Shown: one piece after another, positions 1 to 37,068 of the stretch
Layout: each line of letters begins with the position of its first letter
Position numbering within the stretch: the stretch's first letter is position 1
Assembly: GCA_000004985.1 (NCBI GenBank)
Contig: GG738889.1
From: Naegleria gruberi
Lineage: Eukaryota
Reading direction: 5' to 3' (one strand)
Length of the DNA stretch: 64,000 bases
Notes under the pieces: generated by a model
The model's database searches: none
Told to the model about the DNA's origin: nothing
The model's input: the letters and a program-made list of their open reading frames with translations, nothing else
Program-made: the position numbers and the translations under genes

Positions 1-3000
1 GAAAGAGAATTGTAATATTGGAAGTCATTGAGAGGAAATTGAGTAGAGGAGAGAGGATTAGTCTCATTGAAGAATTTGTTGATTACTTTGAACAAAATGG
101 AACGTGGGATTCAATTAAGGATGATGTTATTATTCTAGAAGCGGAGGAGAGAAGATTGAGTGGAGGATTATCTTTTCGAAGTTCTCTTGATGGATTACCA
201 GCAGGTGCTGGAGGAGGTGCTGCCACTGATGTAACTGGAGGAACACAAGCAACAGCAACCTCATCATCCTCTTCTTCAATGAGTACCTTCACAAAGATAC
301 AGACAGCAATTTCTAATATCGGAATTGCCTTACAAGAAAAGAGGAGAGTTAAGTCGAAAAAATCCTTCATCTTTTCGATAGTAATGAATATATGGATGAT
401 GTGGACAAGTATTTTCATGCCCTCGCTGGANNNNNNNNNNNNNNNNNNNNNNNNNNNNNNNNNNNNNNNNNNNNNNNNNNNNNNNNNNNNNNNNNNNNNN
501 NNNNNNNNNNNNNNNNNNNNNNNNNNNNNNNNNNNNNNNNNNNNNNNNNNNNNNNNNNNNNNNNNNNNNNNNNNNNNNNNNNNNNNNNNNNNNNNNNNNN
601 NNNNNNNNNNNNNNNNNNNNNNNNNNNNNNNNNNNNNNNNNNNNNNNNNNNNNNNNNNNNNNNNNNNNNNNNNNNNNNNNNNNNNNNNNNNNNNNNNNNN
701 NNNNNNNNNNNNNNNNNNNNNNNNNNNNNNNNNNNNNNNNNNNNNNNNTGGATATGCCATTCTGTTTACAAGTTTGATTGTTCCCTACTTGATGGCTGGC
801 TCTTTAGATTGCGACTCTAACAGTAATGTTATCATTGATGAGGTAGCTTATCAGGTTTTGAAAAGATTTCCCACACAGCCATGCTATCTCACTCCAAATG
901 TCATATTCTATGCTATTTTCATTGCATCGATACCATTGGCAGTGCTTACTGTTGCCATTTCAACCATGTTGGTGGCCAATCTCCATCCAATGAATACTTC
1001 ATGGTTTGCAATGCAACACAGTTTCTTTAAATTATCCTTTAATGTTGTGAATAGTACGAGTATATTCTTCCACTTTCTTATACCAGCTGAATTTGCGTAT
1101 GGAAGAGCTATTGTTCACATTGCTTTTGCTCTTTTGAACATTTACATTTTTTGGAAAATGATACCATACTTTAGAAGAATTGAAAATTCATTCTATTTTG
1201 GAGCTATTACTGGTCGATTGGGTTGTGCTGTTGGTGTTTTAATTTCCTCATTAGTTAATCCAACAGATTCCTCTGAATTGGGTCTTGAAATGATGGGAAT
1301 GACCTTGGGTATTATTCTTTTGTGCTATCTGGTTGGTTTTATTACTATGGAAGTTTACACTCGTTTGGTATTTAGATATGTTAGAGATGTTTTGGCAAGG
1401 AATTCAGAGAGGGAGAAGGAAGCTGTAATGATTTATCACATCTTTGAGGAGAAGGATAGATTGAGGTTTTTACAAATGTTTCTTCGATTTGCATTGAGAG
1501 GTAGTCATGATATTGCAGATTTGGCAACTTCATTTGTCAAGTCAGCTGCTGCCTCAAAATCATTCAATGATCCAGAGTTGTTAATTCTGGGAGCGATGCT
1601 TGCTGCCTATAGATGGGAAGACTATGGCTATTCTTATGCCCAAGTGTTGATTAGAAGAGCCAACAGAGCCAACATTCCATACGCGATTCGTTTCTATTTG
1701 GCCGAAAGATCAAGAGAATTGGAAATTGACCAAACTAAGGATATCAATTCTGGACACAACTTTGTAGAAATCAAACATATTGTTGAGAAGGTTGAAAAAA
1801 AGACAGAAGAGCTCAGATCTCTACACAAACATTTTTGGAAGGAGTTAATTAATGAAGTTCCTAATATGGGCAAGCTGGATCAAGTTAATAGAAGAATGAC
1901 CTCGCTTTCGAGTGATATAGAGACTACCTATTCTAATTTAATGACAAATTACTCAAGGGAGAGACAAGTGCTCAGAGGATACGCCACCTTTCTTGAAAAC
2001 TTCAAATTCGATAAGGATCTAGCTCACGAGCTTGTACAGGAAGTTGCCAAAATTGAAGAGGAGGAATCAATAAGAGTTAAGAGAAAATCCTCTGGTTTGC
2101 ACATTCCCTATAACAGTAAGAGAAAGTTTGAGTCGTACAGCATTAGAAAATCCATTGAAGAACGTCCTATACAACCACAAGCAGATCAAGTTGATGATTC
2201 ATTTTCTGGAGTGGAAACTCAACGTGATGTTTCTAAAAAAGAATCCTTATTCAGAAATGCAATTAGAAATGGTGGAAATTCCAAAGTAATACTTTCTTCA
2301 CTTGTAATATTTGGATTTTTCACACTTACATTTTTCCTCTATTACTTGATTTTTGGTGTATATATTAGTATGAACGCTGGTGAGCATGTTAGTAGTGCTT
2401 ATTATATGTGTAAACCATCAACATCAACCATTGGTTTGCTGAGAGAAATAAGAATGAAACAAAATCTTAATCAGGTGATGACACTATTTCCAGAAGCAAT
2501 AACAATTTCCCCAATTATGGTAAATATTTCATTAGAAGAACACAAGACAAGACTCAGTGAATATGATTCCTTTTTCAAACAAATTACAAAAGAAGCACAA
2601 CAAAATAGATTTACGAGAGAGCTCTACGAGATATTTACCAAACCAGATATTACTATTTTCGTTCCATCTGTTCCAAAAAATAGTGGAACTTTGGATTTTA
2701 CCACAACAGATCAGAAAAATGTTAGTGTATTCGAATTAATTAATATTATTTCTGAATCAGCTACATATTTCAAAAATTGGAAAGGTGCAGATTACAACAA
2801 CACAATCCAATCGTTTGAGTTTATGTACGTTTGGGATAACAAGTTGATTGCCAGAAATTCTTTTGTAAAATTTTGTGAATCTGCCATTGCTGCCAATTCA
2901 GATGAAACAAACCAATTTTCCTTTATATTGAATGTTTCTTATGGTGCTACTGCTGGTGGTTACTTGATCATTTCTATTATCTATTTGATTGTGACAAGAT

Positions 3001-5305
3001 ATCAAATGGCAGAAGTTCCCCATGTTTTGAACATTTTCAAAAATAACCTTTCGAAAAATGTTGTGGGAAAGATCTATCATGAGATGAATGAGAAGAATGA
3101 CGATGATGCCACAACTCACCTTCCAAAAACTTCATTGACCAGACCTAATAATTTATTCTTTCTTTATGGAGTTTTGGTTATAGTATCATTGATACTTGTT
3201 GGTGGTCTTATTCTCATTGAATCGAATGTTAATTGTACTGATTCCATTCAAACTTCACTAAATATCAAACATGGAACATCTGTTCTCAGAGTTATTCACA
3301 GAGCAAGTTTCAGAGTTGGAGAATATTTTGCTTATTTTGGTCTACCAAAAACCCATCTCAACAGTGATTACATGACCACCACAGCAGAGCTTGATGGATT
3401 TTTAACAGATATCAAATCCCTGATGGCTCAATTGTTTACTGATTGGACAGCTTTAGTTTACGGTTCTGGTGGATCTGATGTTAGTGTTGGTAAATATTCA
3501 ACAATTGACAGATTAATTCAAGGAGTATCTTCTTGCAGTGATAATTCCACAATGGATGATACAGAATTAGTGGATTTGTGGAAAAACTGTTATGGATTGG
3601 AAAGAATGATTTCAACCTTTACTACTGACGTTTCCAAACTAAACGAACAGGTATACAATCAAAATTATGTGAAGAATTTTGCAAATTTCTTAAATGGATT
3701 TTTGGATATCTTTGTTCAGACAAATATTCTTTCAGACCACTTGATCAAATTCTTGGATTTATTTGTAGAAAATTCATCTTCACCTAATTTTGAGATTACT
3801 GGTGTATTTGGTGCATTGTTTTGCTTGGTTTGCATCTTTTTGTTCTATTCAATGTTTAATACATTGCAAAATAATCATGCTCAATTGATGTGTTTGAGAA
3901 ATATGTTAAATTATGTTCCAGTTGATGCCTTGGATTCGAATGAAGTGGTTAGAAACTTTATTCTTTACAATGCCATTCCAAGTCCATTCTCCAAGGTCTT
4001 TAAGAGTAAGACCGAGAATCCAACTGATGAAAACTCAAAGGTGAGAAGTGTTTTGAATTCTTCTGTTGAGGGAGCCTTCATTGCAGATGAAAATGGTTTT
4101 GTAGAGCTGATTAATCCAGCAGCTCAAAATATTTTCGGATTCCAACAACAATCTGATGTGGTTGGTACTCCTTTCATTAACATATTCGATACTAAGGATC
4201 ATGAACACATCAAAAAGATTATTCAAACCATGAAGGATAGTATGAAATTGTCAAATCACAAAAATGGAGAAGTTGCTGAGGTGGATTGTGTAAGAAAGAA
4301 TGGAACACAATTCCCAGCTATGGTTAATATGTTTATTGTTATTTTTGATAATTCACCTAACTTGGTTTGTTTCTTGAAAGATGTCACATCAGAAAAGAAG
4401 CATAATGCTATAATTGCAGAAGAGAAGGCAAAATCTGATAGATTATTGAGAAATATTCTACCAGAGTCTGTTGCTGCTCGTTTGAAATCGGGTGATACTT
4501 TTATTGCTGAAAAGTTTGCAGATATTACTTGTTTCTTTAGTGATATGTAAGTATTCAAGTATCAATTTTTATTCGAATGATTTTTAATTATTTTCATAGG
4601 GTTGGATTTACAAATCTATCATCAGGATTGAATCCAAATGAATTGGTAGGCATGTTGAATACAATTGTTAATGGATTTGATGCCTTGACTGATAAATATC
4701 AATTGGAAAAGATTAAGACTATTGGAGATGCCTATTTCGTAAGTAATTTCAATCTCTTCTCATAATTTCTAACACAATATATTTCTATCATAGGCTGTTG
4801 GTGGTATTGGAAATACTCAATCAGATCACCCTGAGAGAACTCTTAGATTTGCAATTTCAACCTTTGATGTGATTAAGGATTTCAATATGAAAAATCCAAA
4901 TACTCAAATTAATATCAGATGTGGAATCAATACTGGTGGTTGTGTTGCTGGTGTAATTGGTACGAAGAAGTTTGCATATGATTTGTGGGGTGTAAGTTGT
5001 CAATTTATTTTACTTTTATTTGAATGATTCAGGATACTATTAATGTTGCTTCAAGAATGGAATCAAATTCAAAACCAGGCCGTATTCAAATATCACGATC
5101 TACTTTTGAAAGAGTTCATGATTTGAAATTTGATTTTGAAGAAAGAAGATTGGATATTAAAGGAAAAGGCCTTTGTGCTTGCTATTTGCTTCACCAAAAA
5201 CATCACGAGAATCCAATAATTGAAAAGAAAGTAGAGGACCCATCCCCTCACATGTCTAGTTCAGTTTCTGCAACTACGATTGCCAGTACAAATGGAACCA
5301 ATTAA
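1..5305 (+). CDS. Multi-pass membrane PAS-domain class III nucleotidyl (predicted adenylyl) cyclase, paralog 1. It has 4 exons: up to 18..4546, 4600..4738, 4794..4991 and 5033..5305. The 5' end may lie upstream of the window.
   Basis: A long ORF runs from 18 to 4546. It contains an N-terminal cluster of hydrophobic helices, further TM segments in the middle, and a PAS-like fold (SVLNSSVEGAFIADENGFVELINPAAQNIFGF...). It then has the cyclase signalling helix and catalytic motifs: LPESVAARLKSGDTFIAEKFADITCFFSDM|VGFT, KIKTIGDAYF|AVGG, DLWG|DTINVASRMES. Three introns of 53, 55 and 41 nt (4547..4599, 4739..4793, 4992..5032) have GTAAGT donors and TAG/CAG acceptors and restore the frame exactly. The stop is TAA at 5303..5305. 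The ORF crosses the N-gap 431..748, so the frame there is unverified. There is no in-frame stop upstream within the window. Confidence 0.85.
431..748. other. Assembly gap of 318 N inside the cyclase-1 coding region.
   Basis: A literal run of n. Its length is a multiple of 3, so the ORF track reads through it as X. Confidence 0.99.
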
Positions 5306-9493: not shown

Positions 9494-9640
9494 TGATTGT
9501 TTGAAGAAGCAAATTCTATTCTTCAATATTTCTCAAATGTTATTTTCCATTCAATGAATTTCTTTTCATTTCTCTTGATTTTCCTTCCAACTAATGGGAC
9601 GATTGTTATTGAAGAAGCAAATCCCATTCTTCAACCTTTT
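9494..9640. repeat. Imperfect direct repeat of about 38 nt: copy A at 9494..9533 in the 3' UTR and copy B at 9600..9640 covering the last codons and stop of the kinase.
   Basis: The two copies are gattgtttgaagaagcaaattctattcttcaa and gattgttattgaagaagcaaatcccattcttcaa, about 85% identical and about 105 nt apart. Confidence 0.6.
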
Positions 9641-12600
9641 TCAATATCACATCAATAGAAGGTCGTTTACCTGGCTCATGACTCCACATCTGGCGAATCA
9701 CTTTTGTCATTTCAAAAATCAATTCATGGTGAATTACTTGTTCCTTATCAAGAAATTCCTCACACCATTTCTTACACTCTTCACAAGTTGAGAATGGAAT
9801 GATTGGCCTCAAATTCTCCTCACAAACACTCTTATGGAAGTGATACGAACTACTAAATGGTGTTGGTTTGGTGATTTTCAACTTTTTGAGAACGTTTGGA
9901 TCTGAGCTATGGTAAGGTTCAATAATTTCGAATAATAATTGCCACATAATGATGGCCAAACTGTAGATATCAATAGAACGGGCGTCCTCTCTCTCAATTT
10001 CACCAGAGAAAAGCTCCGGAGCCATAAATGAGCTGGTTCCAATCTGACTGGTAATTGCTGAAATTGTGTGAGAACAAAAAGCTCGTCCTAATCCAAAATC
10101 ACACAGTTTGGCAGTTCCACTTTTATCGAGAAGGATATTGGCTGGTTTCAAATCTCTATTCCACAAATGAAAGATTATTTTAGGTGAAATTTAGTATTAA
10201 TACATACCTGTGGACAATGAAATTCGGTTCCAAATGATGCAAATAATAAATTCCACTCACAATGTTCCTCAATATTGCCAATTTTTCATTGAGAGTGCAT
10301 TTGGAATAGCCACGTTGCATGGATGCAATCATTGCCTCTAAACTCTTATCCATGCACTCCATGGCAATGAATCTCTTTGTTGGTGTCGATGAAACACCAT
10401 AGAAATTGATAATATTTGGATGCCTTAATTTGCTTAATAAAATTGCTTCCACTTTGAAATCATTTTCTGAAATACTCAAATTATTCAAATCGAATACCTT
10501 GACTGCAATTGTCATTCCATTGAATTTGGTTGCAAAAACAGAACCCATTCCACCTTCTCCGAGTCTCTTGATTGGTTTGTCCATATTGAGTTGTTCTATT
10601 GGAATGATGAATTTATCTGCCTCTTCCACATAGTAAGAACTAGATCCCATACTTGATTCATAATGGTCCAACAATCTTTCATCTAAAACCAGATCAGTTT
10701 CAGTCAGTTTCTTATTCTTTCGTTTTACAGAAATATACGAAATAAAGATAATGAAACAAATGGCAGTAACGATGAGTAAAACAATGGCAGATGAGAGTCC
10801 CAATCCGAGGGCAATCGTGTTGATACTACAATCCTTTCCAAAGTAGGAAGATTGACAAAGACACTCATCCTGTTTTACACATGTTCCATGTCCTGAGCAA
10901 GCACTTGATCCTGATTGACCAAAACAAATAGCAACCCCACAATCTTTTCCTGTATATCCACTATTACAAACACAATTATCTGGTGCTGTACAAGATCCAT
11001 TTCCATGTGAGCAAACTTCCACAGATGTCTTTGGATAATTAAAGCAAATTGGTAATTGACAGTTATTGCCAAAAAAACCTTGATTGCAAGAACATTGATT
11101 AATATCGAAACAATTTCCGTTTCCACTACACACTGATTCTGAAATATTTGCTGGTATTCCAAAACATATTGGAATACACATTGTCAAATCTCTACTCAAA
11201 AGGTAACCCTCTCTACAAAATGGTGTCAGTTGTCTCACGACATTTTGAGTAGAATCTGATAAGTAAATCGATCCAGAACTAGGGGAAATTGTAAATCCTT
11301 GTGGAGATGCCAAATAATCACTCGTTGCCAAAATTTCATTCAAATCCAATTCTTTCACAGTTGAATTTCCAGCAATTGTGTAAACTAGATTAATTCCATT
11401 TCGTCTACTTATTTTCCTAATCATTGCATTCAGTGAATCAATGAAAATAATATCCACAAAATCAGGAGGTACCAATTTCACTATAGTTGGATAATTAAGC
11501 TCTGCCTGTTCAGCAATTCCATCTATGTATCCAGGATTTCCACTGCCTGCAATGGTGGAAATTGATCCATTCACATGAATCATTCTAATTCTATTATTAT
11601 TCGAATCGGCGAATATAATTTCATTATCCAAATTGATGGCAATTCCGGTTGGCTGAGCCAAAAGTGCAGACTTAGCATCATTTGAATCTCCATTAAAACC
11701 ATATCCCTTTCCTGCAATTGTTGAAATTATTCCATTTCTATCAATCTTTCTAATCTTGTTATTTCCAAAATCGGTCACATAAATTTCTCCATTGAGAGGA
11801 GAAACAGAAACCGCATAAGGTTTAATTGAAGCATAGGATGCCAATCCCTTATCACCTATTCCACCAACTATAGTCTTGACGATACCAGTTTTAAAATTGT
11901 AAAGTTTCACCAAATTACTGTAAGTATCAGCAATTGCCAGATATTGAGTTCCACCACTTGGTAACTGGAGATATCTGACGCTTGAAGGATAGCTGAGCTT
12001 GGATTTGATTCCCAATCCCTCCTCAAATTCTCCACCTCCAATCAATGTATCAGCAATTCCAGTAGAAATCGAGACAGTCCTAATCCTATTATTATTAGTA
12101 TCAGCTATAAACATGGTATTCTGTGAAATGGTTATACTTTTAGGGAGATAGAGTTCCATATTTCTAACAAATCCACCGTCACCTCCATTACCAATTTCAC
12201 CTGTGCCTGCATAGGTATCTGTAACACCATTAATAGTGGCATATCGAATTCTGTGATTACCCGTATCGGCAATGCAAATCATTTGGCTATCTACCACGAC
12301 AACATCCTCAGGAAAGCTCAATTGAGTTTCAGTTGATAAAATATTATCACCATTGAATCCTTCATGTCCAGAACCAGCAACTGTCTTTACCATTTGAGAT
12401 GTACTACTGCCCAAGTAAATTGATCTAATTCTATGATTTCTAGAGTCGGCAACCAGTAAAACTTTATCAGCAGAGTCAATATGAATTCCTTTTGGCTATA
12501 GAGTTTGTAAATATTGCAAATTATCAAAAATTTCAAACTTACACTATTAAATGTTGTGTTCAACAGTGTGTTATCTCCATTAAAACCCTTCACTGTTGGT

Positions 12601-14393
12601 ATTCCAGCAAATAGTTCCAATTTTCTAGTTCTAATATTCACTCGCCACAAACAATGTTTTTCACTATCTGAAAAATAAACATAATTACTTATATAGGCAA
12701 TGCCAACTGGAGTGCCAATACCACTGTCCTTTGAAACCAGTGTTTGGGATATTCCAGTACTAACATCTACCATTAAAACTCTATAATTCTTTGTGTCTGA
12801 AACAAATAGAGTGACATTCTTTTCGAGATTGTAATTCACTACTGCAACACAAACTCCTTGTGGACTGTTGAGAACTTCTGATAAACCATCAACCATTTGT
12901 GTATTGGTTGAATTAAAGAAGAATGATCCAGTCATTGGTTGAGATTCTAGAGTATTCAAATTGAATTTCACAAGAAAATTCGAAGCCCAATAGTTAATAT
13001 TATTAACTACGAGTAAGTTTGATTGGTGATCAGTGGTAATTGATATTGGATCAGTAAATATAGGAATCTTACTGTGTAATCCACGTTTCAAATCTAATAG
13101 AGAAGTGCTAATCCTTTCAGATATTCCACTCATAAATGAATATTTCAGTAAACGAGCTGATTGAGAATCAGAAATCAGCAATTCCTCTTCTCCATTCTTA
13201 TTCTTAATAATGATCAAATCTTTTGGTGATCTGAGACCAGTCATTGTTCCTCTGGTTTTTTCAGCAAAGGGAACCCTACTCGAGTAAATTGTTGAAATTA
13301 ATCCTGACCTTCTATCCACCATTCTCATTTCATCTGAAACATCCACAAAAACAATTGCTCCTCCAATGGAAATTGTGACTGATATTGCATTGGTTATTTG
13401 AGCTTCAATGGCTAGCCCTCCATCGCCCAATGATCCTGTGTTTGTTCCCTTAATGACATGTTCGAAAACTCCCATTTCGAGTGAATTCACACTTTCATCC
13501 TGATTGTAAACAGTTGTAAATTTCTTAGATGTCACTGCTTGAGGTCCAGAAAAATAAAAAGTTTCTTCCACAATCGTATTAAGTCCATTTTGATATGTTT
13601 TCAAAGAGGTAACATCAAAAGCAAAAGACATACTATTCCTACAGTCAAAAACAGTACGTGTTCCATTTCTGAATATTCTTTCACCTTTTGATTGAAGTAA
13701 AACTTGCCATTCATCTCTTTCATTAATGATAATTCCTTGAATTGACTCTGAAAAAGTCCTGTACAGAGATACATAACCATTCCTTAACAAGAATACATTG
13801 TAATCTTGTGTGAAATAAACATCAATTTCATCCATATTCGAATACTTGTTAATTGGAACGGAGATTGTTTGGGGATAAATAGAAATTGATGTGGCATTCA
13901 CTTTTTCTGTGGAATCCAAAAATTTACATTGACCATCTCCAGCCAAAGTTGTGATCATTCCATCTGCAGTGTTTAGTCTCTTCAAAAAACAATCCGAATA
14001 GAAATAAATTAAATCAATTGCTCTAGTTGACGACGATTGAAAGGAAACAACCTGAAACTTGGGCCAAACATTGGACCGAACAAAACTGATATCACCTGTT
14101 TCAATGTTCAATTTTGCAAGTTGATATCCTTCACTACCTGTGTTTGATGTGAAATAAATAATGTTTGGATCAACTTTTGAGAACATTGCCCTCGCAGCAA
14201 CGCCAGACAGCTGGTTCTTCTTCTCCAAATATCCAATAACAGGTTTTGATTTATATTGCACAAGTCTCTTCCGAACTAAACTTTCCGTTGTTGGTATTTC
14301 TTGTTGACAAAAAACTGGTGATGTGAAAAACAATGTCACGATTAAAAAACACATCAAAACAGATGCCTCTTTACTGAAAGATAATGATGACAT
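9606..14393 (-). CDS. Receptor protein kinase with an NHL-repeat beta-propeller ectodomain, EGF-like Cys-rich modules, one TM helix and a TKL-like kinase domain, about 1562 aa. It has 3 exons: 14393..12543, 12495..10208 and 10155..9606.
   Basis: A signal peptide (MSSLSFSKEASVLMCFLIVTLFFTSPVFCQQE) is followed by multiple NHL-type repeats (…YVTDFGNNKIRKI…, …IFADSNNNRIRMI…, …IADTNNNRIRTV…). Next come EGF-like modules (CSGNGNCFDINQCSCNQGFFGNNC…CVCNSGYTGKDC…CLCQSSYFGKDC), a TM helix (GLSSAIVLLIVTAICFIIFISYI) and the kinase. The kinase carries GEGGMGSVF, AVKV, HRDLKPANILL (with the HR|D codon split by an intron), DFGLG and APE. The introns are 47 nt (12496..12542, GTAAGT..TAG) and 52 nt (10156..10207, GTATGT..TAG). 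Confidence 0.85.
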
Positions 14394-14413
14394 TTTTTTC
14401 ACTCTCTTACAAG

Positions 14414-17400
14414 TTATTTATTATTGGAAGGATTGTTAGGGGTATTCAAGTCTGAAAGTTTTCCAATGAAAGATGAACGAAGTCTACCAGCAGTGTTTGT
14501 CAATTTTCCTGCAATGGTAGCACCTCTTTCTCTGAGTGATGGTGTAGATAATCCATTGTTTGGTTGACCTGTGGTTGGTCGTTGGTTTGGTGGTAAAACT
14601 GGAAGTGTTGGGAGATTCTTTTGTGGGATGGTTGGCAATGGTTTTCTATCATGGTCATCAGTAGGAGAACTAGCTCCATTATTATTGGCTAGGAGTTTGT
14701 CTTTACCAGAAAAGCTCAACACTGTTTCAAGTTTGATTTCACCTGTTTGAGCAGGAGAAACTTCATCTTGAGGTTCGGTAAGTTTGTCTTGCAATAGTTT
14801 GGTTTGCAACTCCAAATTTTGCATTTGAAGGTTTTGGTTTTGTTGTTTTAACTCCGCCAACTGCACATACAAATCAGAAATGATATTCTTCAATTCTGCA
14901 TTGACTAATTGTTGGTCATTAATTTCACCTCTGACGATTTGAGCTGATTCACCCTTCTTTTCCATTTTGAGAGCTCTCTCAGTTTGTTGAATTTGTCTCT
15001 TTACAAGTACATTATACTCCTTCTCAACCTTTCCCTTGTCGATTTGAGTCTTTTGTAAATCTTGTTGTAATTGAATGATATGTTCACGAAGAGTTCTATG
15101 AAGAGCATTTGTTTCCTCTTGAGCCTTCTTGAACTTTTTCTTTTCTTCCTTTAGTTTAAAGTCCAAATCGGTAATCTTTCTATCTCTGAGATCACATTCA
15201 GATTGTAATTGTTTGGTCAAGTGCTTTTGTTGGTTCAGCAATTTACGTGTTTCACTCTCCTGAGTAAGGTAAGTGGAGATACTTTGCTCACGGTTTTCCT
15301 GCTCCTTTCTAAAAGATTGGATATATTCATGGAGTTGACTGAATTCAACTCTGAGAGAAAATTCTTCTTCAGCAGCAACACGAAGAGAATTCTTGATAAT
15401 TTCGAATTGCTTTTGCATGCCTCTCAACTCACGATTTTGATGTTCAATACTTTCATCTGTTAAAACTCTATTAACAATTTCTTCATTCTTCTTATCATCA
15501 ACTTCTTGCTTCCTTGTTTCAAAGAAATCTCTGCCAATATCTGTTTGAACACTCATGTCAATACGCATATTTTTGATACGGAGTTCTTCAATTACTCTAG
15601 CACTTAATCTAATCCAGTCTGCAAGTTGGTTAGGAGTTTCTGGATAGATGAAAAGTCTCTTTTCATTACCATTAATGATGGCCAAAACTTCCTTTGGCAT
15701 TGGTTGATTTTCTTCAATTGGTACTTGTGTCTTGATATACTCTGTTGTATCAGACAAAGCCATATGATAGAACAAGTACTTATCAATGGCATTTGTAGAA
15801 TCCTTTACAAAGCTTTGAGGTGGAAGTTTTTGAGTGAGACACAAAATTTCACAAGTATCTAACAAGACACAGTGAATTCTCTTGAAAGTATTTGAACTGT
15901 GAGTGAGTACTTTACAAGGTCCTTCAATAAGAATATTCTTCTTATTGTCATCAACTTTTGGTGTGTTGGTAACAGCTTGGGGTTGTTTAGAAGGAGTCTT
16001 GATAGATGATTGTTGGTTTTGCATATCGGCCAATACTTCTGTAAGGTGAATCTTACTCTTGATGGCTTCATTCAAAGCTTCTGTCTTATCATTGAGTTCA
16101 GAGTGCATATTATTGAAAAGTCTTGTCAAACTATAATGTTCAATAAGAGTCTTTGTGAAGGATCTTTGTGATTCTGCTATTAAATCTCCCAAATTTTGGA
16201 ATTTTTTGATAATCAAGAGAGTCTTCTTATCAGCAAACATGGCAAAATAACCTTGTAACATATCTGCCCATTGTTTGATATCCTTGAATTGGCTTCTCAA
16301 GAGCTTGGAAATTACATAAACCATCTCTGGTTTGATTTCAATACGCAAAGAGTTCTCTGAATGTCCAAGGGAAGGATCCATAGCTTGGAACCAAATACCT
16401 CTCTTACTCAATGGCTTGGTATAATCATTGATAAGTCCAATCATCCAATCAACTGGTGCCGAGGTGAGTGGAACAACTTCCAAATTGTCAAATGTTGAAG
16501 TCTTTGGAGCACTGTTAATATCATCCAATGACTTGAAAGGAACACCAGTCTTAATCAAACAGTGAACATTTGTACCAGTACCATAGAGCTTGAGTTCATA
16601 TTCATGAGATCTATTACTAAAGCTTTGAACAGGTTGTTTTGATATTCTGTCCAAATGTTCAATACGGTAGAGACTATCAAACATTGGTAGGGTAGCACCC
16701 TCCATGATACTTCTTGTTGGCAAGTGAGTGACCCCCAATGTCTTGATTTCCACACCAACAGCATTTGGTCCTTGACCTTTTCCGATGACATAAACTTCAA
16801 CCTCCTCAAGAGAAATGTCGAACAACATTGGATAGAAAGTTTGGTGAGTGGTGGCCAAGAATTCTTGAACTGTCTTCTTGTCCTCTTCCTCCTCCGTAAG
16901 TTCTTGTTCCTCTGATTGTTCTTTAACAACTTGTGGTTTCTTCTTTGTATCTTTGATCTTTTTAGCAACAGTCTTGATGACTGGAATTAATTCAGTCTTG
17001 ATGGTTGGAATGATTTCTTCCTTAATGACTGGAATAATTTCAGCAGTACTTTCTTTGGTTTTTCTCTCAATTTTGGCAGGTTCTATGGTACGAATTGTTG
17101 GTGTGGAAATGCCTGTTGCTATGGAAATAGGTTCTGGCTTTTTCTCTGACGAATCAACTTCCACAGAAACAAATGAGTCAATTTCTTTCATTGTCAATGT
17201 TAGAGTTGGTGTTTCCTTTGGAGTATCGAAGGCCGATTCTGAAGTAATAATCTCAAATGAGTCATCACCTTCTTCGGTATTCATTTCTTCATCAGTCAAT
17301 GGTTCTTCATCCTCTTCATCCTTTTCTGAAGGTGAAGTAGCAGCCGATTTCGACTCTGCTTCCTGTCCAGCTACTTGTGGTAAAGAAGATTCTTGTTGTT

Positions 17401-25542: not shown

Positions 25543-27262
25543 ATGAAGAATATATTATTGATGTGTGCCAAGTATGAATCGGTTGGAATTATCAAAATGT
25601 TATTTTCCGATTTTAAAACACAAGTGATGGCAATTATCGATAAGACTGATGTAGGTTTAACCTCTGTTGAAATTACGATTATATCATCATTATTGATTTT
25701 AATAGTGGCCTTCGAATTATGTAGGTTTATAAAATTGTTGAGGATTATTGGAAATATTGTTGTGATGAATGATGGAATTATTATATGAAATATTGGAAAA
25801 ATTAGACGGCTTTGCATTGGGCTTGTTATAATCAAAATTTGGAGATTGTGAAAATTCTGGTGGAGAATGGAGCCAACACAACACTTGAAAATGTAGGTTA
25901 TTGTTAAAGGTTATTTCAAAAACGAAACTTGAATAGGCGGATGGTCATAAAGCAATTGATTTGTGTGAGAAAAATTCATCAGTTTATTCATATTTAGCAA
26001 GTGATAGAGCTTCATTGTTTGATTGGATGAAAAAGACTCTTCAACCAAACAAGTACAATCATTCGAATTATAAACCATCGGGAAATGAGGACTATGTCAC
26101 AACAGATACTGATGATGGGTTAGTATTTATTTATTCGAATGTATTATTCACACATGTGAAATCTTAGTTTTGTGGAAATTGAAAAGGTGGAGGTTATTGA
26201 AACGGAGAAAACTCAACGAGAGGAATCAAAGCCACTCACAAGCAAATTACAAATTTTGGAAAATATTACAAAGAGCTTTGCCAAAACTTTTAAAATTGAA
26301 TCGACACTTTCACATGACATTACATCGAGTGTTAGATTTTCCAAAGTTAATGACATGGAATTAATGGATCCTATTGCCTCGGGAAGTGAAGGAAAGGTAT
26401 TCTATGGAAGGTGGAAAAAGCAATCAGTTGCCATCAAGGTCATTGAAGTGCCCTACCTCACTGAGGGGCTTGTGGAAAATTTAAATTTAATTCTCAACAT
26501 TTCACACAAGTATTGTGTCTCTCACCATTCATTTTCCTATGATGAGGAAAATTGTAAATTGTACATAATTATGGAACTTATGAATACCAACCTGTTCAAG
26601 TATATTTTCAGACAAAGGAAAGAATTGACTCTAAAAGAAAAGGTTCATGCATTACATAGTATTTCTATTGGAATGTTCTATTTGCACGATATGAATCCTC
26701 CTGGTAGGTTAGGAATTTCATTAGATTGTTAACAATATTATTTTACATAATATTGAAAATAGTTTTAAATTTGGATTTGAAATTGGAAAATATCTTGATT
26801 AATATTGGAAATGATGGAAGACCTTCAGATATCAAAATTTGCGACTTTGGATTGTCAATGTTTAAGAGCAAGGCAGAATTCATTAAATTGACAGATCCAG
26901 TGGGTACTTTGAGAGCCATTGCCCCAGAAATTCTTCATAATTTCACATGTTCTGAAAAATCAGATGTCTACTCATTTGGAATTTTAATGTATGAATTATT
27001 ATTCGGAAGAGTTGCTTATTATGACTATTTGGAAAATGCAAATGAAAATGATGGAGATGACTTGTTGTTGAATATTGTCAATAATCACAAACGACCAACT
27101 ATTCCATCTGACTATACAATGCCAACTCTCAATCAAGAACGAACAAGTGTGGAAACCTTAATAGATATGATGCAGAAATGTTGGGTGGAAGATCCAAAAC
27201 AACGACCAACCTTTGACCAAATTACTACAGAATTGGAAAAGATTGTTTTGCCGTGCAAATAA
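25543..27262 (+). CDS. Ankyrin-repeat protein kinase, non-RD and TKL-like, about 470 aa. It has 5 exons: 25543..25650, 25806..25892, 25937..26118, 26168..26703 and 26763..27262. There may be an extra 5' exon at 25295..25408.
   Basis: The ankyrin motifs are NILLMCAKYESVGIIKMLF and TALHWACYNQNLEIVKILVENGANTTLEN. The kinase motifs are ASGSEGKVFYG, AIKV, a catalytic loop NLDLKLENILI split by a phase-1 intron, DFGLS and APE. The introns are 25651..25805 (155 nt, the least certain), 25893..25936, 26119..26167 (GTTAGT donor) and 26704..26762. All restore the frame. Confidence 0.7.
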
Positions 27263-27522: not shown

Positions 27523-30500
27523 TTATTCTCTTTTAAATGTAATGGTGCCCATTGTTCTATCCAACATTTCAATTCTTTGGTCTTCATAGTCAGCACTACA
27601 CACAGATCTCAATTCATCTCTATGATCCAAAGTTGGCACAATACTCACCATTCTAGTAACATTTTGAACTTTGTATCTTCTAGAAATTATAATTAAGGCA
27701 ATAATGGAACTAACACAGACAAACAAGACGGCAACATAACCACCAATGACAGAACCAACAATAATACCAACCAAGTTGATATACGTAACTGGAATACTAC
27801 AATCCTCTCCAAGATAACCCAAATCGCATTTACAAACACCACTCAAACACTTGCCGTTCAATGAACAGAAGTTTGGACATACCAAAACTGCTGTGCATGA
27901 ACCATTATTGCTGCATGAATCTTGAGCAACGGCTGTAGCAGAAGCCATAGCATATTCAACCAAACCAGTTGACAAGACATCGAACATACATGATTCGTAG
28001 AATGATGCTGTCAATCCCAAACTATTACAAGCCTTTTCAGCCAAAGCTTGTAGAGTAGCATTTTCCGAAGAGGCCTTCATAATAGGCTTAAAGTCAAGAA
28101 CATTAAGGTCTTCATATTGAGATCCAACAGTATAAGTAAAGAAGGATTCATTCTTTGAAATTCTCCAACTTTCACCAAAAACTTGGTGAATTTGTTCAGC
28201 AGTAGGTGAAGGAAGAACAGTACCATCTCTCAATGTAAATTCATTGTCCTTATTTCCATCGAGTGTACCATACAAACCTCCAAGTTCAGTACCAGTAAAG
28301 TTAACATCCTTTGATGGAGCAAATGAAACAGCCAACCATCCAAGTCCATCATTTCTCAATTTGATTTGACCCTTGAAATCACCACTATACTTGACAGTAA
28401 TGGATTTGTAATAAAACTTCAAACCATTAACCATGTAATAACTTGATGTATCATCTTCTTGGGTAATTGTGGCACCTCCATTCAAAACAAGAATTGGGGT
28501 ATCTGGTTCCTTATACACAAGTTGTGATTCTGTGATATTGGCAACTTGGTTAGTGTCTGGATCGACTTGACCCTTAATTTGTTCTACTAACTTTTGAAGA
28601 TCCTTTGGAATTTCAAACTTGGTATCAGCTTCAACAGGTTGAACATTGACTTTTGTTTCATTGAGATAAACTTGAACATCATTGACAAGAACCTTAACAC
28701 CAGTCTTACCATCAGACAAGATTGAAACCTTATCCGATCCGCTCATGAATGAAATACCCTTCATACATGATGTCTTTGAATCTGCTGTACATTTCATCAA
28801 TCTACCTTGTAATCCCAATTCATTAGACTTGTACAAGTAGAATTCACCAATTGAATTGAATGTATATTCTGCAGCATCAACAGTTCTAAGGTGAATATCA
28901 CCAAAGGCCAAAACCTTATTGACCAAATCAAATATGTGAACAAGACTACAATCTGATCCTCCAAAACCTGGGAAACAAGCACAAGTATTTGGACCAACAC
29001 AAGTACCTCTTCCTCCACACCAATTTCTATGGACACAATGGAATGATGAACAGGTTTCAGTGTACCAACCCCATCTACAGACACATTCATTTGGTCCAAC
29101 ACATTTACCTCTCTTAGCACCACCACAACTTGATCTATTAGCACACAAATCAGTATCAATGACAGCAACACAATTAGATCCAGGAGGAACATAGGTAGCC
29201 TCTTCAATATAGACAGTTGCTTCCTTCTTGACTGGAAGAGTGACAATATTATTCTTACAATCATAAGTAGTTAGACCATCTGTGAAATTGGATGGTGAGA
29301 GATTTCTAGTTGGTGAACCATCAGTAAATTCAATCTTAACTTTCAATGGTCCCCATTTGACAAATCCAATGGAAACACTCAAAGTTGTGGAACCTTGCCA
29401 ATCGAGTCTTATCTTTTCAGGTGTACCAACAACACCAAGCCAATCAATGGAATATCTATAGATACCATAATCCATGTAAAGTGCTCTGTACCACCATTCA
29501 CCCCAATATTGCAATCTACCATTCAACTTTTCACTATATCCATTAGTACTATTCACTCTAGCTCTATCAATACCATTGGTAATGGCTGGAGTTGTAATTT
29601 CAAATCTCTTGAAATTCACAGATTCGTCACAAATGAAAGCATTCCATTCCTTAACATAGGCACACAAAATTGGATCGACCATGATCATAGTACTTGGAAT
29701 AATTCTAGCACCAGCTCTTCTGATTTTAGAAGGTACAGTAATATTTCTAGATAAAGTGCCGTCAGTATCAATAATAACTTCATGTCTATAAACATCAGAC
29801 AATGATGATTCCTTAGAAGCCAAACCAGCAAGTAAATACATAACGTTAGCATTGTGGAAATACATTCTATTGGTAACATAATCACCTTGATTCATTGAAG
29901 CCCAATCATCATTTCTAAGATCAATGGATGATAGCTTTCTTTCACAATTATCAACAAAATCAAAGAATTCCAAATCTTGAAGAAGTAAAGTATTACCATC
30001 ACGATGATATAAAACACCGATAAATGGATCATTTCTACTGTATGAAGGAAGTGATCTATAATATGGTGAGGATGGATTCTTGTAATCAGTTCCACATCTA
30101 TAACATTGACCATCATTACAATTATTTGGATTACCCTTATTTTGTGTAAAACCAATAAAGATGGCACCACTAACAACAATTGGACTCATAATGATATTAA
30201 GGACAGTATAACTAACTGGATTGTCTGCAAAGATACTTCCCTTCAAATTGAGTTTTCCTTGAACGTGGGAGTATTGACCATTTTGTCTATTCTTCCAAAT
30301 GTTCATATTCTCAAATACTGGTTCAGACCAAGGATTCTTATCAGTACCACAATTAGTTGAATCATACATTTCCATCTTTGGATTTGTGCATGTGTAAAAG
30401 TTTGGATACAACATCATACCATGTTGATTATTACTGTGGGCAGTGTTGTTAACAAATTGTCCCCAGTACCATCTATTAGGTCTAATATATGGAGTTTGAG

Positions 30501-33500
30501 AAGCACCTGTAGCATAGGAATCCAAATGATACCAGAAACCAAAAGCATCACTTCCAGCTGCACGATTTCCAATGAAAATATTGTTTGGATTGGTAATGTA
30601 GAAGGTGGCTGGATTATTGTCTTGATTGTCTGGAAGCATGACAGATCTTGAATCTGGAATGACCTTTGAAAGTATACCAAGATTATTTTCGAAAATGTTA
30701 TACTGTTCAGCACCATCTTCAAGGAAGAAAGTATGTCCATAAATATTGAAAGCAACAACTCCTTCAACGTGTAAATAATTGGTTCCTTGCAATGCAACAG
30801 CTCTTTGATAGGTATCATAGACTGAAACCTTGTGGACATAGGAAGTATTGGCATCACCAAACAATTGGAAGTAAATTGGATAACGACCTGGAATACCAGC
30901 TTGACCCATTCGTGTGAATTCAACATTATCAAGTCTGACATATTGAGCAGTTCTGAGGAAGGCAGTGTGACCACCAAACATTGAATCTTCACTTGTTGCC
31001 AAATCACCTCTAATCTTAATATTGTGCGATAACAAACCAACTTCACCACGTTCATCAAATGTAACAACAGTTCCATTAGCCTTTTGATAGTATTCTGTAT
31101 TGGCATAGTGACCATAGACGAGTGGTTTAACAAATCCAAAACATGTACTATTGAAACGGACTGAAATTGTTCTTCTTTCAGCTTGATTGTGATAGTAATC
31201 AGTGGAAGCTAGAACAATTTCATCACCAACTTGCCATTCAGTTGGTTGTTTAAGATGAACGGAAGTATCACCAACTTGAGCTGATTTACCCAACAAAGTC
31301 CAAGAAACTTCATGTTTCTTACCATGCAAGCTCAAAGCACCTCCACTGGTTACAATGATATTCTTAACACCAAATCCAATTAAAGTTCTATTGAGATTTC
31401 TTTCACCGTGAAGTGTAATTGTGGCATTGTGTTGATGAGGGCTGGTTTCATTACCTATTTGGAGAGAACCAGTAACAATCATCGATTTAAAGTGCATTTC
31501 CAAATCAAGCTCATCACTGAAAACTAAACAACCAAATACATGAACAACGTCCAATTTTGGAGGAATGACATCCAAAATAACAGTATAGTTTTCTGGAACA
31601 ACCAAAATTCTTTCGGGTTCAAGATAGAGAGAATCATCCTCTTCTTCTTCATCAATATAGTTGTTGGTAGAATTGGTTGTAGAGTTGGTGGAATTGTGTG
31701 AAATGAGAGTATTATTAACAAGAATGAATGTTGAATTATCGCCATAGCAATTTGTAACATTGAAAATGGTTCTATTAAGGGAACAAACTGTTGAGGTATT
31801 TACAGTAATTTGATTACAGACAACACTGGTAACATTCTCTGAAATGTAGGTAGTATTGCTGCAGTTTGAATTAGTTACTGAAATACACATGGCATCTCCA
31901 TTGGAACAAGTTGAACAATTAGCACTATCACAAGTGAATGAATCAATATGAGTGAAGATGACACAATCAGTATGGTTTGTATAGTAGAATCCATCGAATG
32001 TTGAATTCGTATAACATTCAGTGGTGTGTTCTGTAGCATAACAGTCATAGATATCTTCACGAGTAATCTCAGTTGTGCAATTGGTAGTGCTATTGAATTG
32101 AGAATCATCAATATTTGAACTATTGCTATTGGATGTATTGTTAGAATCAGTTGTTGAACTATTACCAATAGTTGAGTTACCGTCAACAGTAGAGTTATTA
32201 TCAGTTGTTGAGTTTCCAGCAATTGTTGAGTTATCATTAGCTATTGTGGAGTTATCAGAAGTGGAATTGTTAAAGGTGGAGTTATCACTTGTAATAGTAC
32301 CATTATTTACAATTGTTGAATTATCTGAAGTGGAATTATTTGAATCAGTTGTATTATTACTAGTTGTGGAATGATCAACTAGAGTAGAATTACTTCCATC
32401 AATATTGGTGGAATTGTTATCACCAATGTCAGTACTATTATCAACATTTGTTCCATTATTATTATCAACTGTGCTATTATTGTCAGCTGTATTGTTGTTT
32501 TGAACAGTGGAGTTAGAATCGAGAGTTGAATTGTTTTCACCAATTGTACTGAAATCACCAACAGTAGCATTACTACCATCAGTGGTGGAATTATCAACTA
32601 GAGTTGAATTACCATCGATTGTGGAGTTATCACTTGTTGAACTATTAGATTCAGCTTGAGCAGTAATATTAACACAAGTTGTTGAAATACTCAAAACANN
32701 NNNNNNNNNNNNNNNNNNNNNNNNNNNNNNNNNNNNNNNNNNNNNNNNNNNNNNNNNNNNNNNNNNNNNNNNNNNNNNNNNNNNNNNNNNNNNNNNNNNN
32801 NNNNNNNNNNNNNNNNNNNNNNNNNNNNNNNNNNNNNNNNNNNNNNNNNNNNNNNNNNNNNNNNNNNNNNNNNNNNNNNNNNNNNNNNNNNNNNNNNNNN
32901 NNNNNNNNNNNNNNNNNNNNNNNNNNNNNNNNNNNNNNNNNNNNNNNNNNNNNNNNNNNNNNNNNNNNNNNNNNNNNNNNNNNNNNNNNNNNNNNNNNNN
33001 NNNNNNNNNNNNNNNNNNNNNNNNNNNNNNNNNNNNNNNNNNNNNNNNNNNNNNNNNNNNNNNNNNNNNNNNNNNNNNNNNNNNNNNNNNNNNNNNNNNN
33101 NNNNNNNNNNNNNNNNNNNNNNNNNNNNNNNNNNNNNNNNNNNNNNNNNNNNNNNNNNNNNNNNNTATAGTAGAATTGTTGTCTATTGTTGAATTGGAAT
33201 TGGTAGTTGAATTATCAACATTAGTGGTATTATCATAAAGCGTTGAATTGTCAACGTTAGTAGAGTTGTCCATTGTGGAATTGGAATCAGTCGTTGAATT
33301 ATTAACATTAGTGGTATTATCACCTGTGGCTGTTGTTGAATTGTTCTCCACTGTTGAGTTATAGCTAACTGTACCATTTGAATCTGATTGTGTTGAATTG
33401 GAAAGTGAGTCGGTAGTGTTTTGGACAGTTCCATTATTAGTAGAAATGGTCGAATTATCAGTAGAATTATTAGATATCGAGGTGTCATTCAAACCAGAGG

Positions 33501-34641: not shown

Positions 34642-35426
34642 CTTTATAAAATTAAAATTGTTCGGTTTAAAACACCAAGTTCTCCAACACAAATGTTTCT
34701 CTTGTTTTTTTTAAGGCAAATCCCGCACTAAGATATTTCAGTTGTGAGGATGTTAATAATTCAATAACGAAACAAACCTGTGTAATAAATTAAATAGTGT
34801 GAGGAATAGTTTGATGTTTTTTTTCACTTGGTCAATGTTGAGGAGAATAGTTGATGGCCCTCCATTTACCAACGGCCTCAATCCATTCACATTGTTGATG
34901 CAACACAATGGTGGTGAGGAAGATATTAATATCCTTTAGGTTGTATGGTCTCCTGAATGCCACTGTATAACAAACCGAAAAACGTCAATTTTAATTAGGA
35001 GAGCTTCACAAATTTGACACCACATTGTCAGAGACAGTTTTGGCAAATCTCACAACATTGTGCTTAGAGCGCATGTATTCCATAATATTGTATAATATAA
35101 CATTGTCTTAGGAGTGGTGTTAAATAGCTTTCAATTTTTTTGGAGATTTCGTTGAAAATCTAACTGCTGTAATGCTGCTGTTAAAAAGAAAATCAATGAT
35201 ATTACAGGTAGTTATTCATTAATTAAGTTGTTTCTTTTGATAGAAGGAATTGTATTAACAAATAGAGTATTCACAGACCATTGTAAGTAAGGAACAAATG
35301 GTTTTATACGGCAATCGTTACAGAATTGCCAAACCTGAGGGACAGAGCTGTTCGATAATGAATCTTCCAAAGAATCAAGGACTCTTTACTCCTATTATTC
35401 CGTAAACTATGAAATTACAAATAAGT

Positions 35427-37068
35427 TTATAATACCTTTCTAATCCTATTATTTTTAGTATCTGCAATGTAAACAGCACCATTTGACTGAACTGCAATTC
35501 CACATGGATCATTGAGAGATGACAAGATGGCAGGCCCATTATCTCCATCAAACCCAGCTCCGCTTCCACCAGCAATTGTTGAAATAGTTTTGGTTGTTGG
35601 ATTAATCTTCTTAATTCTTGCATTAGACTTGTCAGCAACATAGACATCACCATTTGGACCAATAGCAATACCAAAAGGTGAATCCAAGCATGCAAACTCT
35701 GTTGTGGATGGGAATCCTGGACGACATCCACCAGCAATTGTAGTCATGGTATAATAACCATTTTGAACTACGACTTGTCTCACCGTATTGATCAAATTTT
35801 CAATAAAGTAAATCTTTCCTCCACTTGCTGCAACACTTATTGGGGATGAAATCTTGATATATTGAGCAAGTCCTTCATAAATTAAATTGGGTTGTATATA
35901 AGGAGAGTATGTGTAATCTGTTCCAGCAACAGTGTAAAGTTTTGAAGAGGTAATTTTTCTAATCTTTGAATTATTAGTATCTGCAAAGTAAACAGTATTT
36001 GAACTAGATTGATCCACAGCAACACTTGTTGGATTATTCAACGATGAAGCAATGGCTGATAATCCGTCATACAAAGGACTACCAGCATCACCATCCCCTG
36101 CAATGGTAGAAATCTTTCCATTTGAGATTGTAATCTTTCTAATTCTATGATTTTGGCTATCAGCAATATAGACATTTCCAATCGAATCGAGAGCAACACC
36201 TGTTGGTGAGCTTAATTTAGCAGTTGTAGCAATGATATTGTCTCCGTTATAACCTTCCTCTTCTGTTCCAGCAATGGTTGAAAGCTTTCCAGTAAGTGCT
36301 GTGAATTTTCTAATTCTATGATTTTGAGTGTCTGCAATGTAAATATTTCCACTAGAATCCACTGCAATACTTGTTGGAAATAGAAGGGAGGTAGAAGTTG
36401 CTGCTCCTGAATCTCCACCATATCCAGGCATACCATTACCCACAATGGTTTTAATTTGAGGTAACAAAATGTTGGTCAAGAATTGAGAAACGCTCACTGA
36501 ACTAGATGGATTAGCCAACCTGTTTATCAAACCCCATGCGGAAGAGGAATTCGACTTTTTGTAAAGGAATACTACTCCATTATCAACCATGTCTGGTGCG
36601 CCAACTAAGAGATAGTTACCATTGGATGAGAAGGACAATAAACCGCCAAAAGATTGTTCTTCAGAATCAATGGCAAATTCCAATGCACAACTATCATTTT
36701 CCACACATGAGAAAATTTCAACTCTATATTCATATCCAAGCACCAATTGGTTGGATAACATGGCTGCAGAAGTAACGTTCGAGACTGAGACATCCATCTC
36801 CTTATACCATTCAAAAGTGGATGTGGAATACTTGTAAAGGGATACTATTGATTCTTGAATGGAGACTACTCGTTGATAGTCCTGAGAAAAGAGAGCTGAA
36901 ATAACTTGGACTGGTGTATCTAATATAATTGATGAGGTGCTTCCATTATGAACTGTGAGTGTATCAACGTCCCATGTGAGTGTGAGTTGTTGTTACTTGG
37001 GTGAAACTACCAAGAGTCAATAAGAGCAGCATCATGATCACTGTTACCATAATATGTAATCGCTTCAT
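35427..37068 (-). CDS. Secreted NHL-repeat beta-propeller protein of about 520 aa. Its 5' structure is uncertain.
   Basis: The 456-aa ORF carries more than 6 NHL repeats (…IYIADTQNHRIRKF…, …VYIADSQNHRIRKI…, …VYFADTNNSKIRKI…, …VYVADKSNARIKKI…, …VYIADTKNNRIRKV). An upstream signal-peptide ORF (MKRLHIMVTVIMMLLLLTLGSFTQVTT, ATG 37068) lies in a different frame. The two join either through a short intron or, more likely, a 1-nt frameshift near 36990. Confidence 0.65.

Follow-up and report, generated by a model that had tools for sequence, protein, structure and literature searches.

The locus considered here raises the question of what kind of protein Naegleria gruberi encodes at positions 9606..14393 of a 64,000-nucleotide stretch of contig GG738889.1 (assembly GCA_000004985.1), hereafter the window, and whether that protein belongs to a described class of receptor. 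An earlier note, made from the letters of the window, had read there a receptor kinase with a long extracellular array of NHL repeats, EGF modules, a single transmembrane (TM) helix and an intact TKL-like kinase. It had not recognised this domain order as a described receptor class, and it had proposed a secreted NHL-only protein encoded further along the window as a possible partner. The present analysis confirmed that the gene is real and intact and that it encodes an N. gruberi protein lacking any characterisation. Its product is probably a receptor Ser/Thr kinase of type I with a single membrane pass, perhaps of dual specificity; it belongs to a small Naegleria-specific family and is predicted to be activated by a ligand or by contact.

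The coordinates given in that note proved correct, and the gene lies on the minus strand, where it is read in the reverse complement of the window from an ATG at 14393..14391 to a TAA at 9608..9606. The spliced coding sequence, obtained by removing two short introns (Table 1), is 4689 nt long, in frame, and translates into 1562 residues. Intron 1 falls within the third clear NHL blade (residues 593-647), and its splicing brings back the blade consensus (...TTFNS/PKGIHIDSADKVLLVADSRNHRIR, the stroke marking the junction); without it, the frame enters unrelated residues and meets a stop about 50 codons on (open reading frame, ORF, 12387..14402). The splitting of the catalytic HRD motif by an intron, noticed earlier, was also found, intron 2 interrupting its Arg codon, and splicing gives FIVHR/DLKPANILL, which restores the catalytic loop. 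The fusion of ectodomain and kinase is independent of either splice prediction, since a single ORF of 744 codons (12414..10180) carries eight NHL blades, the EGF modules, the TM helix and the kinase as far as HR with no stop.

Of seven neighbouring ORFs searched for as exact sequences, six are present in the protein collection, the exception being an ORF of 646 residues. Five of the six equal GenBank proteins of N. gruberi NEG-M from a single 348,446-bp scaffold, and the remaining one clusters with a protein of that scaffold; the five include the flanking EFC40975.1 (8368..9423) and EFC40977.1 (14414..20977). The receptor itself was absent from the results of three homology searches and from an exact look-up in the protein collection, which covered the 1562-residue model and three shorter variants (two kinase-only starts and the unspliced exon 1). 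Either the locus lacks a public gene model, or the public model differs from the 1562-residue one. From the order of the two neighbouring accessions, the putative entry for the receptor is EFC40976.1 / XP_002673720.1 / D2VQM8. The stop codon of the upstream gene, which encodes the 2187-residue EFC40977.1, lies at 14416..14414 (TAA), leaving 20 nt before the receptor ATG at 14393. With such a gap, the receptor promoter and 5' untranslated region (UTR) must overlap the upstream gene, or both genes are co-transcribed.

Assignment of the ectodomain to NHL repeats was supported by profiles. The Pfam NHL model matched the 1562-residue protein at 1.3e-26 in four stretches (91.7 bits against a cut-off of 20), and TEN_NHL matched at 9.2e-25 (87.8 bits, cut-off 27.1), so that the assignment did not fail against profile hidden Markov models (HMMs), the check that the earlier note had named as able to refute it. 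A blade HMM located ten blades in residues 489-1039 with i-E-values of 1e-16 to 3e-26; it was built on the gene's own repeats, which makes these its training blades, and the independent support comes from the two Pfam models. Three further weak matches to the blade HMM (residues 146-179, 319-363 and 382-421) are outside the training set, and the N-terminal 587 residues taken alone reached 23 bits with TEN_NHL, under the 27.1 cut-off. The long array described earlier is therefore sustained for residues ~489-1039, with its ten blades, but not for residues 30-488, where only sub-threshold signals were obtained.

For residues 618-1177, AlphaFold2 (AF2), supplied with an alignment of 47 sequences, predicted eight four-stranded blades, and most of residues 618-1040 had a predicted local distance difference test (pLDDT) value above 80. 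In a Foldseek comparison with the PDB, the top matches were all NHL propellers at a probability of 1.00 (BiTLP 9ifo, SOQ1, NHLRC2, teneurins, TRIM71/Thin and the Pizza designs), and LRP6, LRP2 and LRP4 appeared as weaker fold matches. By sequence, the closest solved propeller in the PDB is that of the teneurin-like protein (TLP) of Bacillus inaquosorum (9pt5/9ifo, 1e-44).

The blades are followed by a Cys-rich region, in which a module was called EGF when it combined the spacing C-x(n)-C-x5-6-C-x5-C-x-C-x8-C with a profile match above cut-off. Three modules qualified, with EGF_2 at 1.2e-13 (51.6 bits, cut-off 22.1) and EGF_Teneurin at 3.5e-12 (46.6 bits, cut-off 24.3); the multi-EGF model EGF_TEN gave 48.9 bits, under its cut-off of 65. 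At the N-terminus, the hydrophobic signal-like segment VLMCFLIVTLFF (best 12-mer 3.03 in hydropathy) predicts a signal peptide of residues ~1-29 with cleavage after VFC. The only other strong hydrophobic segment is the TM helix, with a Kyte–Doolittle 19-mer maximum of 2.97. Signal peptide, ectodomain, one TM helix with KRKNKK behind it in agreement with the positive-inside rule, and a C-terminal kinase on the predicted cytoplasmic side together make up a type I single-pass arrangement as judged from sequence.

The kinase domain was matched by Pfam Pkinase over residues 1259-1552 at 2.4e-43 (148.9 bits, cut-off 31.7), above the 108.6 bits of PK_Tyr_Ser-Thr (4.4e-31). All catalytic motifs are present in the translation: LGEGGMGSV, IAVKVF, KVEAILL with the alphaC Glu, HRDLKPAN, CDFG, MAPE and GKRPS. 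The domain has the sequence features of a catalytically competent eukaryotic protein kinase and is predicted to be one. A pseudokinase was ruled out, every catalytic motif being intact. A receptor tyrosine kinase of the tyrosine kinase (TK) group was also ruled out, the HRDLKPAN loop being of the Ser/Thr type and Pkinase outscoring PK_Tyr_Ser-Thr. The closest solved kinases are CTR1 (1e-31), IRAK4 (2e-23), TAK1 (5e-23) and SOBIR1 (1e-21), all of the TKL group, and the activation segment SHTISAITSQIGTSSFMAPE is rich in Ser and Thr. Much of the first description thus survived: Pfam, hydropathy and motif reading bore out the EGF modules, the single TM helix and the intact kinase, and the TKL-like label agrees with the nearest solved structures and with the tree placement described below.

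Relatives were sought with the kinase and the ectodomain as separate queries, since the full-length protein drew mainly bacterial NHL proteins along with generic kinases, and its matches did not include the paralogues. The kinase query returned a tight set at 37-56% identity, after which identity dropped to 36% or less, with the exception of one 39% match over 28% of the query. One member, P0030, clusters at 90% with N. gruberi D2VDH5 (NAEGRDRAFT_66846, 1555 residues, 'predicted protein'). D2VDH5 is a full-length Joint Genome Institute (JGI) model with the same architecture, in which Pfam finds NHL, EGF and Pkinase domains, and it is collinear with the receptor over residues 321-1547 at 33% identity. 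It differs in having five EGF modules and a diverged N-terminus. It also appears to lack the HRD intron, since the ORF of a close orthologue on the Naegleria-like metagenome contig L001 is uninterrupted. There, NHL, EGF, TM and kinase parts share one 643-residue ORF (2888..4819), with additional NHL ORFs and a signal peptide ahead of it. On two other Naegleria-like metagenome contigs, L082 and L083, an NHL-EGF-TM ORF lies directly upstream of kinases of the same set.

A neighbour-joining (NJ) tree built from kinase domains unites all six members of the family in a single clade with 100/100 bootstrap support, which lies beside plant receptor-like kinases (RLKs), TAK1 and other protist kinases, and apart from bacterial Ser/Thr kinases (STKs). 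All available family members keep a family-specific C-lobe insert, RPxIPF....C..WC (residues ~1495-1515), and an acidic juxtamembrane Leu-Leu sequence, LDERLL (residues ~1215-1222), is common to family members. The NHL-EGF-TM-kinase architecture is conserved at four loci; besides the receptor, it occurs in D2VDH5 and on L001, L082 and L083. From this conservation and the collinearity with D2VDH5, selection appears to have acted on the whole arrangement. The comparisons support placing the receptor as one member of a small lineage-specific Naegleria family, and the description of the system as family-specific is upheld in this respect. In a metagenome scan with the kinase alignment, no family members were found among the matches listed, which were distant generic kinases; near-full matches did not exceed 38% identity, and a single match at 45% was confined to a 64-residue fragment.

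The same ectodomain modules occur elsewhere in N. gruberi. D2VPM5 (NAEGRDRAFT_70916, P0284, 'predicted protein'), encoded on another scaffold, has 2807 residues with ~17 NHL blades, more than 15 EGF modules and a C-terminal kinase, as well as a long extra region without a domain match and, on reading its sequence, a TM-like hydrophobic stretch before the kinase. That kinase is 29% identical to the receptor kinase and lies outside the family clade in the NJ tree; given this position, an NHL-EGF ectodomain has become fused with a kinase at least twice. The GenBank model of D2VPM5 stops inside the kinase domain and is for that reason probably truncated. NHL-EGF proteins without a kinase were also found in N. 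gruberi (P0190 and P0349), and P0155 has NHL repeats and one EGF-like Cys module. With exon 2 as a query against representative proteins, the best 150 matches were giant NHL/EGF repeat proteins, mostly of unknown source, and a kinase was present in only two of them, the eukaryotic P0284 and the bacterial, PknD-like P0389. The remark in the earlier note that NHL repeats belong mainly to soluble proteins does not suit this organism, which has many NHL-EGF(-TM) surface proteins (P0190, P0349, P0284).

Against this background, the receptor was compared with known systems. Mycobacterium tuberculosis PknD (Mbk) is a receptor Ser/Thr kinase with the order kinase, TM helix and six-bladed NHL propeller (PMC3322341, PMC1262709, PMC1847690). 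As in the receptor, a Hanks-type kinase is linked via one TM helix to an extracytoplasmic NHL propeller sensor. In PknD, however, the order is reversed, with the N-terminus inside; a single six-bladed propeller without an EGF stalk stands against at least ten blades and EGF modules in the receptor; and the PknD kinase belongs with the bacterial STKs, on the opposite side of the NJ tree from the Naegleria family. Bacterial NHL-propeller kinases were also present among the homologues (P0164, annotated 'PknD', P0195 and P0389). From these comparisons, PknD is best regarded as an analogue produced by domain shuffling and not as an orthologue, and the receptor, although it would work on a similar principle, is not a PknD-type member.

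In Dictyostelium, which has no TK-group kinases, the GDT and DRK families are TKL receptor kinases of type I whose ectodomains are specific to the lineage (PMC1420674). By description, the two families resemble the receptor in their signal peptide, lineage-specific ectodomain, single TM helix and TKL-type kinase, TKL-like in the receptor, and in coming from a free-living amoeba; their gdt, drk and TIG ectodomains are unrelated to its NHL-EGF ectodomain, and the organisms belong to Amoebozoa and Discoba, respectively. The plant RLK/Pelle kinases are receptor Ser/Thr kinases with a single membrane pass, too, and belong to the TKL group, which the receptor kinase resembles; leucine-rich repeat RLKs and SOBIR1 are among the nearer kinase relatives. 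Plants have TKL receptor kinases with lineage-specific ectodomains, and among these, the WAKs carry EGF-like repeats next to the membrane. The WAKs differ from the receptor in having a GUB_WAK domain and calcium-binding EGF modules without a propeller, and in the NJ tree the plant kinases form a clade apart from that of Naegleria.

The modules themselves resemble those of teneurins and bacterial teneurin-like proteins, to which 9ifo and 9pt5 belong (PMC13018210): both have teneurin-type NHL repeats and tenascin/teneurin-type EGF modules in an extracellular position. Teneurins, in contrast, are type II proteins with the EGF modules before the NHL repeats, a single six-bladed propeller held in an FN-plug/YD-shell superfold, and no kinase. 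In a Pfam search at E<=1, no YD/RHS or FN-plug match was found in the receptor. Identity with a teneurin was ruled out on the missing YD shell and on the type I topology with NHL before EGF. In the LDLR/LRP receptors and in Sevenless/ROS1, arrays of six-bladed propellers, with EGF modules alternating between them or following them, stand above a single TM helix, coupled to a kinase in ROS1/Sevenless. These propellers are of the YWTD type, unlike those of the receptor; the kinase belongs to the TK group (HRDLAARN against HRDLKPAN), and the proteins are known only from metazoans.

A literature search, incomplete in its coverage, yielded no description of a eukaryotic NHL-EGF-TM-kinase combination or of Naegleria NHL/EGF receptor kinases. 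The earlier statement that this is not a described receptor class holds in part: the eukaryotic domain order was not found in the literature covered, but PknD and the Dictyostelium TKL receptor kinases are described. The receptor is a new domain combination within the known class of protist and plant receptor Ser/Thr kinases. Trypanosomatids, the best-studied Discoba, have no TK or TKL kinases and few TM kinases (PMC1266030), and the Naegleria family is of some evolutionary interest because those groups are missing there.

The mode of action suggested by this arrangement is as follows. Guided by the signal peptide, the ectodomain of ~1150 residues would come to lie outside the cell, or in the lumen of a compartment of the endocytic or phagocytic type, where one or more propeller faces may bind a ligand; bacterial prey, the substrate or other amoebae could present such a ligand, for example as a protein or glycan. 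The three disulfide-rich EGF modules would form a membrane-proximal stalk that holds the propeller array off the membrane. Ligand-driven clustering or dimerisation would then bring the kinase domains together, and these may trans-phosphorylate their Ser/Thr-rich activation segments and subsequently cytoplasmic targets. Precedents for such a mechanism exist in PknD (PMC3322341, PMC1847690) and in the Dictyostelium TKL receptor kinases (PMC1420674).

Several points weigh against reading the protein as a ligand- or contact-activated receptor at the cell surface. The reading is built on sequence, profiles and predicted structure only, the signal peptide and TM helix were called from hydropathy alone, and residence at the plasma membrane is an assumption. 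No fold can be assigned to the N-terminal 460 residues, where the NHL signals of residues 30-488 are all below threshold and the region can be called weakly NHL-like; AF2 applied to exon 1 with a two-sequence alignment gave a pLDDT of 29.6 and no usable fold, and the EGF stalk was modelled at low confidence (pLDDT <50). For the kinase, MARK and CDK kinases follow the solved TKL structures at about 1e-21 to 1e-20, so that after CTR1 the TKL lead is only ~100-fold; TKL-like is a fair description on the basis of a similarity ranking and a small tree.

With these points in mind, three other accounts of the protein were weighed. That it joins by annotation or assembly error what are in fact a separate NHL-EGF surface protein and a cytoplasmic kinase might be suspected from the split models of some N. 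gruberi relatives, such as the kinase-only P0027 of 303 residues, and from the gene callers that divide the NHL-EGF and kinase parts on L082 and L083. ORF 12414..10180, however, runs stop-free from the NHL repeats through EGF modules and TM helix into the kinase N-lobe, ORF 2888..4819 on L001 is likewise continuous, and the JGI model D2VDH5 is full length; because of this continuity, the artefact is effectively refuted. An account that deserves more weight, though we hold it to be rather unlikely, is that the protein is primarily a teneurin-like molecule of adhesion or recognition, whose NHL-EGF part would make homophilic or heterophilic contact with like or related NHL-EGF surface proteins on other amoebae, or would bind on the substrate, and whose kinase would report contact instead of a diffusible ligand. 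Teneurin NHL domains take part in homophilic trans-interactions, and the receptor has teneurin-type modules by both profiles (TEN_NHL 9.2e-25, EGF_Teneurin 3.5e-12) and by its closest solved propeller (9ifo/9pt5, 1e-44; PMC13018210). Candidate partners are at hand in the N. gruberi surface proteins P0190, P0349 and P0284, and giant NHL/EGF-rich proteins, mostly of unknown source, are plentiful among the best 150 exon 2 matches. On the other side, the lack of a YD shell, an FN-plug and type II topology means that the receptor is not a teneurin, Naegleria is unicellular with no known cell-cell adhesion role for these proteins, and sensing of contact is not separable from sensing of a soluble ligand by sequence alone. 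It is improbable, in our estimate, that the protein instead resides in a phagosomal or endolysosomal membrane, with propellers in the lumen that sense ingested bacteria and a kinase that regulates phagosome maturation. The topology fits a luminal ectodomain equally well, Naegleria is a bacterivore, and the conserved juxtamembrane LDERLL could be a sorting signal, but its spacing is not exactly the canonical [DE]xxxL[LI] and nothing in the sequence favours this location over surface residence. In Dictyostelium, the receptor-like TKL kinase VSK3 is an example of action within the phagosomal system. DRK-family TKL receptor kinases are present in that organism (PMC1420674).

The preferred reading of the protein as a receptor Ser/Thr kinase leaves apart the proposal that it forms a dedicated pair with the NHL-only protein of the window as ligand, co-receptor or decoy. 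The NHL-only gene, also on the minus strand, proved real and rich in NHL repeats, with a Pfam NHL match at 3.7e-37, and its product has a signal peptide and no TM helix. Location on one strand within one 64-kb window, shared NHL blades and a protein of the secreted type speak for the pair. Against it, the propeller of the NHL-only protein is 34% identical to that of the receptor, below the unlinked N. gruberi P0155 (40%) and D2VPM5 (39%) and close to bacterial NHL proteins (31-32%). The two genes are also 21 kb apart, separated by unrelated genes that include those of the 2187-residue EFC40977.1, another kinase and a giant surface protein, and no NHL-only neighbour was found on L001, L082 and L083 within their short lengths. 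Since unlinked paralogues resemble the receptor at least as closely as the NHL-only protein does, the pair idea is unsupported, nothing specific in these sequence comparisons ties the two genes together, and we consider such a pair very unlikely. The GenBank model of the NHL-only protein, EFC40980.1, begins at 36797 and lacks the signal peptide; the signal-peptide exon is backed by the near-identical ENA protein P0431 (573 residues), which reads straight through from MKRLHIMVTVIMMLLLLTL. Joining this exon (36797..37068) requires a 1-nt correction near 36995 or an intron of ~57 nt (about 37010..36954).

Table 1. Features of the receptor kinase gene and of the NHL-only gene, in coordinates of the 64,000-nt window.
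Feature	Position	Strand	Residues	Details
Receptor kinase, whole coding region	9606..14393	-	1-1562	3 exons, 1562 residues; stop codon included
Exon 1	12543..14393	-	1-617	predicted signal peptide, weakly NHL-like divergent N-terminal region, first two clear blades (489-590)
Intron 1	12496..12542	-		47 nt, GTAAGT...TATAG; inside an NHL blade
Exon 2	10208..12495	-	618-1380	other NHL blades, EGF modules, TM helix, juxtamembrane segment, kinase N-lobe to HR
Intron 2	10156..10207	-		52 nt, GTATGT...AATAG; phase 2, in the Arg codon of HRD
Exon 3	9606..10155	-		aligns to the C-lobes of family kinases
Ten clear NHL blades	11274..12927	-	489-1039	blade HMM; intron 1 included in the span
Cys-rich region	10875..11264	-	1044-1173	20 Cys; short Cys-containing linker, then three 6-Cys teneurin/tenascin-type EGF modules
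Single TM helix (predicted)	10773..10859	-	1179-1207	followed by KRKNKK on the predicted cytoplasmic side
Protein kinase domain	9606..10617	-	1259-1552	runs on to the C-terminus; intron 2 included in the span
NHL-only secreted protein (predicted)	35427..37068	-		EFC40980.1 / XP_002673724.1, 'NHL repeat-containing protein'; ORF 35430..36797 an exact match

Other genes of the window were also inspected. The giant surface protein lying between the receptor and the NHL-only gene (27523..34692, minus strand) is an Asn/Ser/Thr-rich type I protein of more than 2300 residues, broken by an assembly gap (a run of N). Its C-terminal part contains teneurin-type EGF modules, a VWD domain and a stretch resembling RGM_C, together with a C-terminal TM helix, and the protein adds to the set of surface proteins that bear EGF modules. 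A second, unrelated kinase (26172..27262, plus strand) is 24% identical to the receptor kinase, and its division into two overlapping ORFs (26172..26732 and 26726..27262) indicates a short intron or a frameshift. Near the two ends of the window, at 18..4550 and 57935..63361 (both plus strand), are two very large paralogues, each containing a PAS domain and TPR repeats of the TmcB type. The one at 57935..63361 also has an adenylate/guanylate cyclase catalytic domain (7.5e-52); none was found in the 18..4550 ORF, whose 5' end may be incomplete since the ORF begins at the window edge.

In terms of the biology of the organism, knowledge of receptor kinases is thin beyond animals and plants, and a free-living discoban amoeba appears to have a conserved type I TKL-like family of them. 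Its sensor would be an NHL propeller on an EGF stalk, an NHL sensor in a kinase context being otherwise known only from bacterial PknD, and the family adds a data point on the reinvention of receptor kinases by shuffling of extracellular modules. As a more speculative extension, to which we give little credence at present, Naegleria, and perhaps Heterolobosea, may have independently built a receptor-kinase family on a teneurin-type NHL-EGF scaffold that detects prey, or the NHL-EGF coats of other amoebae, by contact. If this were true, Discoba would possess a receptor Ser/Thr kinase system of their own, assembled on at least two occasions from one ectodomain cassette (the D2VDH5 clade and D2VPM5), and the propeller modules might trace to the bacterial NHL pool that also fed teneurins. 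As long as neither a ligand nor a phenotype has been found, the practical significance stays modest; the family offers an entry point into how Naegleria, including relatives of the pathogen N. fowleri, may sense prey, surfaces and other cells.

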